DNA of 64,000 nucleotides from Isurus oxyrinchus (lineage: Eukaryota): NCBI GenBank assembly GCA_026770705.1, contig JANJGN010000026.1, positions 25,296,001-25,360,000 on the forward strand, given 5' to 3'. Of this stretch, positions 22,149 to 62,740 are shown one piece after another. The notes under the pieces were generated by a model. That model did not search any database, was not told the origin of the DNA, and was given only the letters and a program-made list of their open reading frames with translations. The stretch's first letter is position 1. Each line of letters opens with the position of its first letter. Position numbers and translations under genes: made by a program.

Positions 22149-22398
22149 AACAAAAACAGAATTACCTGGAAAAACTCAGCAGGTCTGGCAGCATCGGCGG
22201 AGAAGAAAAGGGTTGATGTTTCGAGTCCTCATGACCCTTCGACAGAACTTGATTTCGAAGTTCTGTCGAAGGGTCATGAGGACTCGAAACGTCAACTCTT
22301 TTCTTCTCCGCCGATGCTGCCAGACCTGCTGAGTTTTTCCAGGTAATTCTGTTTTTGTTTTGGATTTCCAGCATCCGCAGTTTTTTTGTTTTTATCTC
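22149..22398. mobile_element. Palindromic non-autonomous Penelope-derived element with hammerhead motifs; 12-bp TSD
   Basis: ~104-bp inverted arms (22147-22250 and 22258-22361) with a 7-nt loop; TSD GGAGATGTTTAA at 22137-22148 and 22399-22410; interrupts a CR1 remnant. Confidence 0.9.
22259..22297 (+). ncRNA. Minimal type-I hammerhead ribozyme motif (variant core)
   Basis: AGUU-CUGUCGA-A-GGGUC-augag-GACUC-GAAA-C-GUC^-AACU: stem I AGUU/AACU, stem II GGGUC/GACUC, loopless palindromic stem III ACGU, GUC cleavage triplet. Confidence 0.65.
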
Positions 22399-22789
22399 GG
22401 AGATGTTTAATGTGGAAAGGTGAGTGATGGGTGACTTGATTGAGGAATTTAAGATCACATAAGTGTTTCTACAGGCTAGACAGCTGGTAGATGTTTCCAG
22501 TTTTACAAGGACGAAAATAAATATAACTTAGTAATGAATCTAATGTGCAGTTCAAAAAAAAACTTCCTTAACCAGAGATAAAAACGGAAAATACTGGAAA
22601 TACTCAGCATATATGGCAGTATCTGGGGAATGAGAAACAGGCTCAACTTCCGTGTAATGATGCAGTGCCGTTCTAATGAAAAGTCATCGACCTGAAATGT
22701 AAACTATATCTCCCTTTCCACAAACAGAACAGATCTACTGAATGTTTCGATTCAACAATATCGACTCTCAATGGCTGGGTTTTTACCCA

Positions 22790-23190
22790 GCATTCTCGAC
22801 AGGGAAGAATGTGTCCTATCCAGACTACAGGGAGCTTGCTGCACAGGCGTACTAGCCAGCTGGAAGTTGAGCATGCGCATTGCGATCCCTGATTGGGACA
22901 TGCGCACTGTAGGTTGTGCCTGGACTAAGACGGAGAAGGGAGAAAGAATCGAGTGCGGTCGAGTAATGGAGCCGCTGGATGGGTGGAGAGGATTAAAGCC
23001 AGCGGAGTGGGCGGAGACGCTTCATAAACACCTGGTGAATACCTCAAAACCCCGCTACGAAGCTACCGATCCTGCGTTTGCACAGGATGGGATGATGTTG
23101 GCCTGCTCTGGGTCTTAGGCCCGAGTTAATAGCCGCCATCTTTACCAGGGGCGAGATGCAGCAGGGCGCATGCGCGGTCATCTCTGTCCT
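22790..23190. promoter_or_regulatory. CpG-rich promoter-like island (P1)
   Basis: GCATGCGC/GCGCATGCGC (NRF1-type) x3, CTGATTGG (CCAAT), GCCGCCATCTT (YY1-type), CpG enrichment. Confidence 0.7.
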
Positions 23191-23220
23191 GTGTGCAGGA
23201 GGAATGTTGTAAATTTCGCT

Positions 23221-23931
23221 AACAAAAACAAAAATACCTGGAAAAACTCAGCAGGTCTGACAGCATCTGCGGAGAGGAACACAGTTAACGCTATGACTCT
23301 TAAACAGAACTAAGGAAATAGAGAAATTATGTGAAATATAAGCTGGTTTAAGTTGGGGGGGGGGTGGTGTGGAGGGTGGAGCTGGATAGAGGGCCAGTGA
23401 TAGTTGGAGATAACCAAAAGATGTCATTCGACAAAAGGACAAAGAGGTGTTGAAGCTGGTGATATTATCTAAGGAATGTGATAATAAAGGTACAGATAGC
23501 CCCAGTGGGGGTGGGGTGGGGGGAAGGAATTGAAAAAGGCAGAGATAAAACAATGGATGGAAATACATTTTAAAATTATGGAAATAAGTGGGAAAAGAAA
23601 AACCTATATAAATTATTGGGAAAAAGGGGGATCTGACAAAGGGTGGAGATGAAGGAGAGAGTTCATTTTCTAAAATTGTTGGAACTCAATATTCAGTCCA
23701 AAAGGCTGTAAAGTGCCTAGTCGGAAGATGAGGTACTTTTCCTCCAGTTTGCGTTGAGCTTAAACCAGCTTATATTTCACCTTTTTTCTAATTTTGCTTA
23801 GTTCTGTTGAAGAGTCATGCGGACTCGAAACGTTAACTGTGTTCCTCTCCGCAGATGCTGTCAGACCTGCTGAGTTTTTCCAGGTATTTTTGTTTTGGAT
23901 TTCCAGCATCCGCAGTTTTTTGCTTTTATCT
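23221..23931 (-). mobile_element. Penelope-like 3' fragment with inverted terminal copy
   Basis: 23221-23352 is the inverted repeat of 23759-23895; GIY-YIG C-terminus at 23660-23760; hammerhead motif CUGUUGA at 23804. Confidence 0.85.
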
Positions 23932-24100
23932 TTGTGAATTTCTATACTGGACTGACAGGGATGGATTTTGGAAACTCCTTTTACAAGGGGTGAGAAGAGG
24001 TGAATTTCCACACAGCAACCTCAAACGAAGAGTAATGTTCGTCTCTTCTAAATTTCTATCCTGAACTGACAATAAAGGTCTTTGTAAATTTGCTTTACAG

Positions 24101-24240
24101 GGTTTTTAGAAGTGGAGGATTGACAGACGGGAAACTCAAACCAAACGTCACATCCAGATCTGACAGAGTCACTCGATTCATCGGGACCTGAATCAGCATC
24201 TGAATGTGGAATGGAAAAGGTTTGTCTGTTCTGTCTGTGT
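24101..24240 (+). pseudogene. Truncated head of the ZNF exon (no intact fingers follow)
   Basis: TTTACAG acceptor plus GNSNQTSHPDLTESLDSSGPE segment shared with the other ZNF units; cut by CR1. Confidence 0.7.
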
Positions 24241-60035: not shown

Positions 60036-60199
60036 TTGTCTGTCTGTAACAATATGTCTCAAAAACTAATGAATGGATTTGAATAAAACTTGGTACATAA
60101 TAAGGTTGTGGCCTAAGGAACGTTAGATTCAGTGAACATGTGGAACAGATCCAGATCCTGGATTTTTTTATATTCGTACACAAGGCCTGATCTTCTGTA

Positions 60200-60525
60200 G
60201 GCAAATGGAATTTGTCCAGGCATTGCACCTTTTCAATTAAAGGAAAGCTTGGGGGACAATTGTTCCCTGATGCAGTCCCCATGGCAACCAATCAGAATCA
60301 ACTTGCTATTTTTGAATTTGAATAAAAGCTTTGGGGAACTGTTCCCTGATGCATTCTCTATGGCAATGCCTCAACCAATCGGAGTCCACTTGCCAACCAA
60401 TCAACACCCTGTTTCTCAGACTGTATAAACTCTAGTTTCCTTCGAAATTTGGTATTCTTGCATCTATCTTGATGAGTGCAAGACAAAAAGCTTCAATAGC
60501 ATGTCTTTTTTTCAGTAATATTCAA
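60200..60525 (+). mobile_element. Pseudo-LTR-like promoter module with a second, decayed hammerhead motif
   Basis: CCAATC x3, TATAAA at 60424, then TATC-TTGATGA-GT-gcaag-AC-AAAA-AGCTTC-AATA (60465-60498). Confidence 0.5.
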
Positions 60526-61811
60526 ATATATAAAGAAGTTTTATCAACATTGGGAGAAATGTTTTTTTCCCAACAATATATTGTAAACAATGATAACAAA
60601 TTGCCTGAAAATTCACAAACATTTGCACTGGCAAATTTGTTAATTTTATTGTGAAGTGTTCCCGATCCGGAACATTTCCAGATATGAAGATCATTTATAT
60701 ACTTGTCGCAAAAAATTCTGTTTAGGAAATCACAAGACTGGTTGTTTCTGCTTACCCCACAATGATAAAGGATTGTGCAATCATCAGCTAATCTCACATT
60801 CCCAATGAAATATGTAGCCTGGTGTCAGCTGATAATGTATTGAGAAAATGCTGATGTAATTTCATGACATAATTACAGCAAAATGTGATGACATCAGCAG
60901 ATTAAGCAATCCCAATGGAATGGTGTGACGTCAGCTTGATCTTAGACAAAAGCAGTCTGTTCGGAAACGTATAGAACTGGACCAGTTTTCTTCAGTACAG
61001 AAAGTCTGCTGCCCTGTGAAGCTCCCTGGGATGTTTAAAGGTGCACTATAAATATAGGTTGGTTTTGTTGTGATGCTTGAATTATTTTCAGGGGATGCCG
61101 TTATTGTTAAGTAGTCAAATGCTTCCTTGGTGTGTCCAGGGAAAGCTATGGGAAGGCTGTTGACTATAATCGGCCATGTCTGGCTTCAATGTTTAAACAT
61201 ACAGGCATTGTTATATCAGTTACTCAGAGCTAAAGAGAAACCCATCTCTTTAAATATATATACAGAGAAGAGGCTGAAATGAAATCTATCCCTTTTAACC
61301 TGCACAAAAGCAGGATGCTCAGATTAACAGGCCACAGAAGGAGTGCATTCAGCCCATCATGCCCCTGCCATCTCTTTGAAAGGCCTCTCTGATTCATCTT
61401 ATGGCTCTGCTCTTTTCCAACAGCCCTGCAAGTTCTTCCCTTTCAAGTATTTACCCTTTGGAAGTATACTATTGAATCTGTTTTGAGGTGGATCAGAACA
61501 ACTCACTGTGTGAAAAAGGAAAATCTCATCACCTCCCTCTGGCTCCTTGGATAATTACCTTAGAGTTTCTCACTTTCTGTTAAAGAACCTGCCAATCCCT
61601 TTCACCCACTTTCCCTAAAGTACATAAATCTAATCAGGAAAAGTCCAGCAAAATCAAATACTTCTACTGATAAAAGTTTATTAATGAGACAGAACATAGT
61701 TAAAAACAAGAAAGAAAATGACTTAATGATCAAAGACAACTAGAATAAAAGGATGTGCACAATGTTCTGGACCTAAATGGTTTCTCTTTAATTCATCTGT
61801 CCCCTGCCCTC

Positions 61812-62420
61812 TTTGTGGAACACCTCTGCTCAGTCCACAAGCAGGACCCTGACCTTCCAGTTGCTCGCCATTATAATTCACCACCTTGCTTTCGTGCTCA
61901 CATTTCTGTCCTTGGCCTGCTGAAATGTTCCCAAAAAGTCCAACGCAATTTGGGCGAACAGCACCTCGTCTTCCGAGTAGGTACTTTACAGCCTTCCGGA
62001 CTCAACACTGAGTTCAACAACTTCAGACTGTCAACTCTGTGCTCCATTCTGATTTTTATTTTGCCAAGTGCCAGTCTGTATCTTGTTTTCATGTTTTTGC
62101 TTTCAGACAAAGTTGTCTTTTATTCTGCCTTTAATACTTAGTCTGGCCCAATGCTTTGTTTCTTTGCTGCAACCATTACCATTCCCCTTGCCTTTTGTTC
62201 CATGACATTTTTCATTTAATTTCGCCCACCCTCTAACCAATCCCTGACTTTCCTGTTTGTTCTACCTGGCCCTCCTACCATTCTCAGCAGCATCAAACCC
62301 ATCACATTTCTCCCTCTCTTTAGTTCTGACCAAGAGTCACAATGGACTTGAAGCATTAGCAAAACATCTCTCCAAAGATGCTGCCAGACCTGCTGAGTTT
62401 TTTCATCACTCTATTTATTT
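61812..62420 (+). mobile_element. Penelope-like 3' fragment
   Basis: FVEHLCSVHKQDPDLPVARHYN...EQHLVFRVGTLQPSGLNTEF. Confidence 0.85.
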
Positions 62421-62643
62421 TAGATCTACCTGTAATGGTAAGGAAACATTATTTACTATCCAGAATAAAACAAATCTATTTTAATCAGCTTTTGTGAATC
62501 ATTTCAGTGGAAATGTGAACTCCCAGGCTCAAAGAGCATCAACACACTTGAAACAAAGTTTTGAGACCAGCCAGAAAGAAACACTCCAACCCTCCCACTT
62601 CACCAACTGTCAGAATAATAATAAATAAATGTAATAAATCCAG

Positions 62644-62740
62644 ATCTGTAGAAGGGTCATGAGGATTCGAAACATCAATTCTTTTCTTCTCCGCCGATGC
62701 TACCAGACCTGTTGAGTTTTTCCAGGTAATTCTGTTTTTG
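62644..62740 (+). mobile_element. Single-arm hammerhead mini-element (more diverged)
   Basis: CTGTAGAAGGGTCATGAGGATTCGAAACATCAAT...; possible TSD GTAATAAAT. Confidence 0.8.

Follow-up and report, generated by a model that had tools for sequence, protein, structure and literature searches.

A one-letter change at position 6 of the hammerhead core in a Penelope-like retrotransposon of Isurus oxyrinchus

The minimal type-I hammerhead motifs of metazoan Penelope-like elements (PLEs) lie in the pseudo-long terminal repeat (pseudo-LTR, pLTR) and have a short stem I, an extra nucleotide between A9 and G10.1, a G10.1-C11.1 pair, a palindromic 15.2-16.2 stem and a GUC or GUU triplet, mostly in solo truncated copies (Cervera and de la Pena 2014, PMC4209133). 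We analyzed motifs with the same features in a 64,000-nucleotide stretch of the Isurus oxyrinchus genome (contig JANJGN010000026.1, positions 25,296,001 to 25,360,000; hereafter the window) and genome-wide. The catalytic core of these motifs differs: A6 is present in every row examined in Fig. S3 of that paper, where the reported core variant is U3-A8, whereas the motifs described here carry U6 or C6. Since the published descriptor requires the canonical CUGANGA box, it would miss the present family. The host element multiplied to tens of thousands of copies after the core change, which replaced a highly conserved catalytic letter, and cutting is likely to be weak or unneeded for its jumping, although the RNA shape looks preserved.

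A natural substitution at core position 6 is known from one tested phage example, the A6C hammerhead of Bcep176 (PMC3088659, PMC7151607). A6C lowers the Mg2+-dependent cleavage rate, and the phage variant is slow in Mg2+ and active in Mn2+ (PMC3088659, PMC7151607, PMC12192606). The substitution described here is U6, known from sequence in ~85,000 exact copies of a vertebrate retroelement, while a CUGCUGA side lineage has the same box as the A6C construct. Naiad and Chlamys PLEs likewise reach high copy numbers without canonical hammerheads (PMC8557442); here, in contrast, the domain order is canonical, the fold is still present, and the loss can be followed letter by letter in a dated series. 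The need for PLE hammerheads in retrotransposition has been stated as open (PMC8557442, PMC11167929). The literature searched, including text of bioRxiv 10.64898/2026.07.22.740005 and PMC6765202, contained no mention of a naturally occurring U6 core, nor of hammerheads in shark Neptune elements. The novelty of the U6 core is provisional, as the survey left out the work of Lunse, Weinberg and Breaker on PLE hammerhead variants and the bioRxiv supplements. This analysis contributes genome-wide counts, a dating of the one-letter switch, the lineage with G4+U6 and controls for the footprint test.

The host element and its intact copy

The motifs sit in the pLTR of an active Neptune-type PLE. An intact tandem of ~3.35-kb units (locus L111) contains three U6 hammerheads, spaced 3,353 and 3,340 nt apart, with U6 on both sides of an open reading frame (ORF) of 918 amino acids, counted from the first ATG, that encodes a reverse transcriptase (RT) and, at the C terminus, a GIY-YIG domain. 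This tandem is a full-length partner of the kind in which a first, sequence-only reading of the window had proposed to inspect position 6. The RT domain matched RVT_1 with 32.9 bits (cut-off, 29.6; E = 7e-08); GIY-YIG scored 19.9 bits (E = 9e-4), under the cut-off of 22.6, with a recognizable motif, VYCIRCSQCGLLYIG. The protein also contains the PADKGG and CIRCSQC motifs of endonuclease-positive (EN+) PLEs, with the two histidines of CCHH not placed (definitions as given in PMC8557442). A CX2-5CxxC linker between RT and EN, here CPRKRCNTC, is a trait of the Neptune clade, and the assignment to that clade was read from this motif.

The element shares with Neptune-type EN+ PLEs (PMC8557442) and with the anole Poseidon element PAc (PMC11167929) the single ORF with RT and C-terminal GIY-YIG, the partial tandems with pseudo-LTRs, the inverted 5'-truncated copies and the optional ~36-nt tail from two 3' ends. 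Inverted copies with an optional 30-40-nt tail were seen in the pairs at 22.2 and 52.3 kb of the window, and the 3' ends fell in two clusters, at +95-101 and +132-135 relative to C3, ~36 nt apart. It differs from both in its noncanonical hammerhead core and from PAc also in its ORF: that of PAc starts in stem II, this one at a point well downstream of the hammerhead. The ORF has been under purifying selection since the A6-to-U6 switch: when 9 copies of the early U6 stage were compared with the intact young ORF, the ratio of nonsynonymous to synonymous differences per site (pN/pS) was 0.20, with a pS of 0.214 over 191 codons. Given this synonymous distance, the lineage has long been active with U6.

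History of position 6

Exact 28-mer patterns carrying the young stem II were counted over the 4.98-Gb genome. U6 accounted for 85,234 of the 87,523 matches, C6 or G6 for 2,118 and A6 for 171; reversed control patterns had no matches genome-wide. The young consensus is therefore not A6, the outcome that would have spoken against the sequence-only reading. A hidden A6 young master was considered and rejected, as 171 copies is of the order of the background seen for G6, which made up 5 of the first 100 hits in the C6/G6 set of 2,118, and 3 of 30 inspected A6 young copies were head-to-head junction artefacts.

We also retrieved copies with a profile from a blind sample of 108 10-kb stretches and the window. 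Of 155 hits, 150 had enough downstream columns; they were binned by identity to the young copy downstream of the core, and rows with position 6 present were scored. At ≥93% identity, position 6 was U in 53 copies, G in 1 and A in none (n = 54), and all 8 copies at 85-93% identity had U. At 78-85% identity, 14 copies had A and 6 had U (n = 20), and below 78% there were 32 with A, 1 with C and none with U (n = 33). The CUGANGA box is thus nearly absent from the young copies and present in the old families, and for this reason we class the motif as a variant derived from the minimal hammerhead of PLEs rather than as a canonical example. The transition itself is visible in an intermediate-stage pattern with 4,233 exact copies, the first 100 of which had 58 U, 37 A and 5 C at position 6. 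Since stem II, N7 and the triplet are identical among these copies, a single letter switched while the rest of the hammerhead stayed as it was, with nothing compensating for it at the time; all later main-line subfamilies inherited the switch.

A tree of 69 long copies (ORF end and pLTR, core masked) was ladder-like, with the A6 families outside and U6 from an early CUGUUGA stage upward. The A6 and C6 rows inside the U6 ladder are rare copies fetched on purpose, and two rows mis-joined to a neighbour's upstream sequence (W62642 and L011_1640) were disregarded. In a 97-column tree of the tail only, all 42 U6 rows, 20 A6 rows and 9 C6 rows fell in one starred 71-row clade of unresolved inner order. 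Divergence of copies from the majority of their own stage, the stages being defined by upstream sequence, was 0.099 and 0.075 for the A6 stages and 0.026, 0.025, 0.019 and 0.006 for the U6 stages; these values are biased low, as many loci were chosen by exact match, and 4 of 18 rows in the oldest stage bin were misassigned. A site-by-site variant spectrum from contigs was left unused because it omits known CpG variants across the core; runs of three organisms, A, B and C, one of which may be the source, showed no A6 row, an absence that, given this omission, carries little weight as to sharing across species.

These data bear out the proposal that U6 is inherited rather than a product of random decay (85,234 exact genomic 28-mers, 53 of 54 young blind-sample copies and the intact partner) and that it is compatible with retrotransposition, as shown by copies amplified genome-wide and by the intact U6 tandem. 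The suggested comparison of position 6 with age, by tree and by identity bins, placed U6 in the younger stages and A6 in the oldest. U6 had been assigned to the youngest subfamily, where it is indeed fixed, but it is older than that, being fixed through several successive subfamilies.

The clade in which U6 arose also gained a splice-donor-like AG/GUAAUU or AG/GUAUUU (window 22340-22350; L111:6140-6147), where older families read AGCAUU; no matching splice joint was listed in the contigs checked. In Drosophila virilis, Penelope has an intron in the corresponding region (PMC2377424).

Two side lineages carry other core changes. Among the first 100 C6/G6 hits, 85 were CUGCUGA and 9 were CUGCCGA; U6 hits have the opposite balance of N7 letters, 19:80. 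The CUGCUGA lineage is seen at loci L117-L121 and L373, and C6 was found in both halves of 4 fetched insertions. Variants at U4 numbered 763 genome-wide; by hand count, the first 100 comprised 63 G, 21 A and 16 C. The U4G change is damaging to the hammerhead. The G4 copies (CGGUCGA) on C1 and C2 had a common upstream haplotype (L364, L368 and L381-L387). Of 7 fetched pairs, 6 had G4 in each half and the remaining one was G4/A4. The shared haplotype and the paired occurrence imply that a G4+U6 double-mutant master made several hundred insertions. Overall, the C6 and G4+U6 masters produced from hundreds to about two thousand copies, and these two side lineages suggest that the core is relaxed. 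Separately, the cleavage triplet has been lost repeatedly, in young and old families alike, through a 6-nt deletion between two copies of AAC (L176, L180, L184 and L301-L330).

Copy ends, fold and the role of cleavage

Integrated copies run through the predicted cut site. Genome-wide patterns for U6 gave 242 boundaries for the cut site, with 24 of 30 inspected proving real, and 249 for a mid-motif control; the A of AGUU, which forms the 5' edge of stem I, had 2,976 with a stricter flank rule applied. In the blind sample, 24 of 40 young copies started between -13 and +7 of C3 and none between +20 and +41, the cut being after +30. The A6 families had 60 cut-site boundaries versus 85 at the control, and 19 of 30 checked were internal deletions; a peak suggested by ~12 old A6 copies starting at +25 to +34 was therefore not confirmed genome-wide. 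The lack of a cut-site peak in either class indicates that integrated copies stem from uncut RNA in both, which fits in vitro results for a PLE, where mutating the hammerhead left insertion normal, the cut site had no read ends and cleavage required the protein (PMC11167929).

Inversion junctions and 5' ends pile up at the A of AGUU (window 22259, 52320 and 54354, and genome-wide), in a context that we take to be initiator-like. This A is possibly a transcription start, and the stem-I start would most simply be the RNA 5' end from an internal promoter. An internal TATA-less promoter lies in the corresponding region of D. virilis Penelope (PMC2377424). The idea that U6 or an upstream hairpin causes the stem-I-edge start was rejected, as short starts made up 7 of 30 in both the young and the intermediate sets and old A6 copies also start there. 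CpG decay at the same sites (L005:1533-1556) was ~1% in runs guessed to be RNA versus 10-15% in large runs of unspecified type. The lower decay could reflect transcription of young copies, but the two sets differ in run type and in organism.

The motif comprises stem I (AGUU/AACU), CUGUCGA followed by one additional A, stem II with 5 pairs and then GAAACGUC. The GAAA box, A15.1-U16.1, the palindromic 15.2-16.2 and an NUH triplet are all present (GAAACGUC or GAAACGUU), as are G10.1-C11.1 and the extra nucleotide after A9. Stems I (4 bp) and II (5 bp) were paired in 90.5% of cells. The claim that stems I to III stay paired thus stands formally for the first two; stem III is only the palindromic ACGU, as in minimal hammerheads, and was lost in the 22245 and 52321 minus-strand copies by CpG decay. 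Covariation in a 20-row alignment (one row misaligned) was not above shuffles (46-91 of 500 were as high), and the young 39-mer folded no more stably than its shuffles (z = 0.06). Double-sided differences at 10.1/11.1 and 10.2/11.2 were found in the oldest family and predate U6. Rfam covariance models gave no hammerhead family among 14 window matches at E ≤ 10, for U6 and A6 copies alike, the matches being solely microRNA-like and on inverted repeats. In folding predictions, stem II pairing weakened in the later stages, falling without upstream sequence from ~1.0 to 0.37 in the youngest, and with U6 the two core boxes could pair with each other in a rod.

The pLTR sequence immediately upstream of the motif changed fast and stepwise into a likeness of the motif's 3' half (GGACUCGAA; L005:1470-1505 and L111:6030-6063), and its predicted pairing with the motif was not above that of shuffled controls. 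An anti-hammerhead hairpin was also predicted, in which the youngest upstream pLTR would tie up the 5' strands of both stem I and stem II; it was rejected as a specific adaptation because 33 of 60 shuffled upstream sequences scored as low in the youngest stage.

Constraint was estimated from positions counted by hand in stage majorities along the main line since the switch. Among 31 positions in the stems and core, a single one changed (an A-U pair of stem II became G-U), as opposed to 4 of 7 free positions, namely N7, N17 and two sites of loop II (Fisher P = 0.002); against the synonymous rate, the stem and core positions gave P = 0.005.

Considering these results together, the motif is probably an attenuated ribozyme whose cleavage is dispensable for insertion, with the fold and overlapping signals still under selection. 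The amplified C6 and G4+U6 lineages and the uncut 5' ends favor dispensable cleavage, and conservation of the rest of the motif favors a fold that is still used. The element's protein would reverse-transcribe RNA that has not been cut, from two internal positions that lie ~95 and 132 nt downstream of C3, the stem-I pile-up would mark the RNA 5' end made by an internal promoter, and U6 would lower cleavage, by analogy with A6C. What remains conserved may reflect the fold, residual protein-assisted cleavage and/or an overlapping promoter. The sequence-only reading had offered two alternatives, an attenuated variant or a fold kept for RT recognition after catalysis was lost; the frame was right, though its two halves are inseparable by sequence, and an overlapping internal promoter would account for the conservation as well as an RT-recognition structure would.

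Several observations count against an attenuated, dispensable ribozyme. The ten catalytic letters alone did not differ clearly from the synonymous rate (P = 0.09; P = 0.044 for the 13 box letters), and the 65 nt downstream of the motif were also slow (7 changes, P = 0.02; Fisher P = 0.43 versus the motif), so hammerhead-specific selection is not cleanly separable from constraint on a promoter or on RT binding. The triplet with C at N17 is best for cleavage, and N17 changed from U to C, toward it. Variants of the loop U (1,577) were twice as many as those of U4, and the G4 and C6 lineages stayed minor. As the A6 families, too, have no cut-site peak and thus provide no positive control, the footprint cannot compare the activities of U6 and A6. 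The U4C viroid is an example of a core variant that can work in vivo despite poor in vitro rates (PMC3088659), and the hammerhead literature surveyed yielded no A6U cleavage data.

Some of the same observations would suit a CUGUYGA core that works, its cleavage being rescued by a dimer, the PLE protein or another cation and needed in the long term, perhaps to free the RNA from read-through transcripts, with only minor side lineages doing without. We regard this as unlikely, although G8, G12, C3 and all other main-line core letters were kept over a pS of 0.21, the changes fell at N7, loop II and N17, with U to C at the last, and U4 variants were half as frequent as loop-U variants; moreover, natural A6C cleaves with Mn2+ at 0.3 per min (PMC7151607), and PLE hammerhead cleavage needed protein (PMC11167929). 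Such a requirement is hard to square with the several hundred copies reached by the G4+U6 master, with the predicted weakening of stem II and the rod pairing that U6 permits, and with the normal insertion of hammerhead mutants in vitro (PMC11167929). An improbable further reading is that the ribozyme is dead and its RNA fold incidental, the DNA being conserved through an internal promoter (initiator plus downstream elements) and an RT-binding region. Many copies of all stages start at the A of AGUU in its presumably initiator-like context, the downstream sequence is constrained too, and neither the folding z-score nor covariation exceeded shuffles, as this reading would have it; the promoter of D. 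virilis Penelope (PMC2377424) points the same way. Yet the free positions match the hammerhead map, the sole stem change keeps its pair, and the double-sided changes of the oldest family, though they predate U6, speak for a fold.

This genome amounts to a natural experiment, with A6 and U6 stages one letter apart and side lineages carrying C6 or G4+U6, all of them counted, and with a young ORF that is intact; it makes the open question of the need for PLE hammerheads directly testable. If U6 is silent, a very successful vertebrate PLE would show in vivo that cleavage can be dispensed with; if U6 cleaves, the hammerhead consensus of genome surveys misses very large families. It is conceivable, though unlikely, that CUGUYGA is a functional, previously undescribed core, rescued by protein or dimer, in ~85,000 copies invisible to CUGANGA-based searches; the lineage would then be a natural dated series (A6, U6, C6 and G4+U6) of tuned ribozymes on one backbone.

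Copies and other repeats in the window

A pattern search for complete cores found 12 copies in the window, 9 with U6 and 3 with A6 (Table 1). Every copy named in the sequence-only reading was recovered by sequence search, including CUGUCGA in the near-identical young copies on both strands, CUGUUGA in two related ones and CUGAAGA in the older tails. The positions 8098 and 35757 reported for the latter are those of A6, and the minus-strand copy placed at ~59352 has its C3 a few nucleotides away. CUGUAGA proved to be one mutated copy rather than a subfamily. In the window, the copies are PLE ends truncated at the 5' side and often placed head-to-head, with target duplications of 11-16 bp in 5 of 6 insertions checked, in keeping with descriptions of PLEs; the duplication around the 22.2-kb head-to-head pair is 13 bp long (22136-22148 and 22398-22410, 1 mismatch).

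Table 1. PLE copies and hammerhead-like motifs in the window (C3, first letter of the core)
Positions	Strand	Feature	Basis
22147..22250	-	Inverted 5'-truncated young PLE end, short tail; CUGUCGA, C3 22245, U6 22242	
22258..22398	+	Young PLE end, long tail; head-to-head with the 22147..22250 copy	
22259..22297	+	Minimal type-I hammerhead-like motif, C3 22263	sequence
22259-22262/22294-22297		Stem I of the 22263 motif	
22263-22269		CUGUCGA of the 22263 motif (U6 = 22266); extra A at 22270	
22271-22275/22281-22285		Stem II of the 22263 motif	
22286-22293		GAAA-CGUC of the 22263 motif; predicted cut after 22293	
23221..23931		Older U6-stage insertion, pLTR between its minus copy (23221-23311, stem II deleted) and plus copy (CUGUUGA, C3 23804); 11-bp target duplication	
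52187..52393		Young head-to-head insertion, CUGUCGA, C3 52321 (-) and 52324 (+); 16-bp target duplication 52175-52190/52392-52407	
54354..54452	+	Young solo end, first base is stem I; CUGUCGA, C3 54357	
54763..54866	-	Young solo end, CUGUCGA, C3 54859; 11-bp target duplication	
59255..60041	-	Older U6-stage copy: GIY-YIG end fragment (59763-60041, 82% to intact ORF), pLTR, CUGUUGA, C3 59357	
62636..62741	+	Mutated young solo end, CUGUAGA 62646; 12-bp target duplication	
8002..8104	-	Old A6 copy, CUGAAGA, C3 8101 (for comparison)	
35667..35764	-	Old A6 copy, CUGAAGA, C3 35760 (for comparison)	
45758..45859	+	Old A6 copy, U4 decayed (CAGAAGA, C3 45759)	
9961..10821	-	Old A6-type copy with GIY-YIG fragment (10387-10821, 67% to intact ORF)	
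61812..62414	+	Old A6-type copy with GIY-YIG fragment (61812-62027), decayed core CUGACCA	

Elsewhere in the window, arrays of an 84-bp repeat resembling C2H2 zinc-finger exons occur on both strands (31000-31800, 36700-37450, 47500-48500, 52990-53240, 56400-57020 and 62880-64000); going by the repeat unit, they look like a zinc-finger gene cluster. Three related dispersed repeats of more than 1 kb (12881-14152, 28814-30117 and 39288-40574) are probably LINE fragments.

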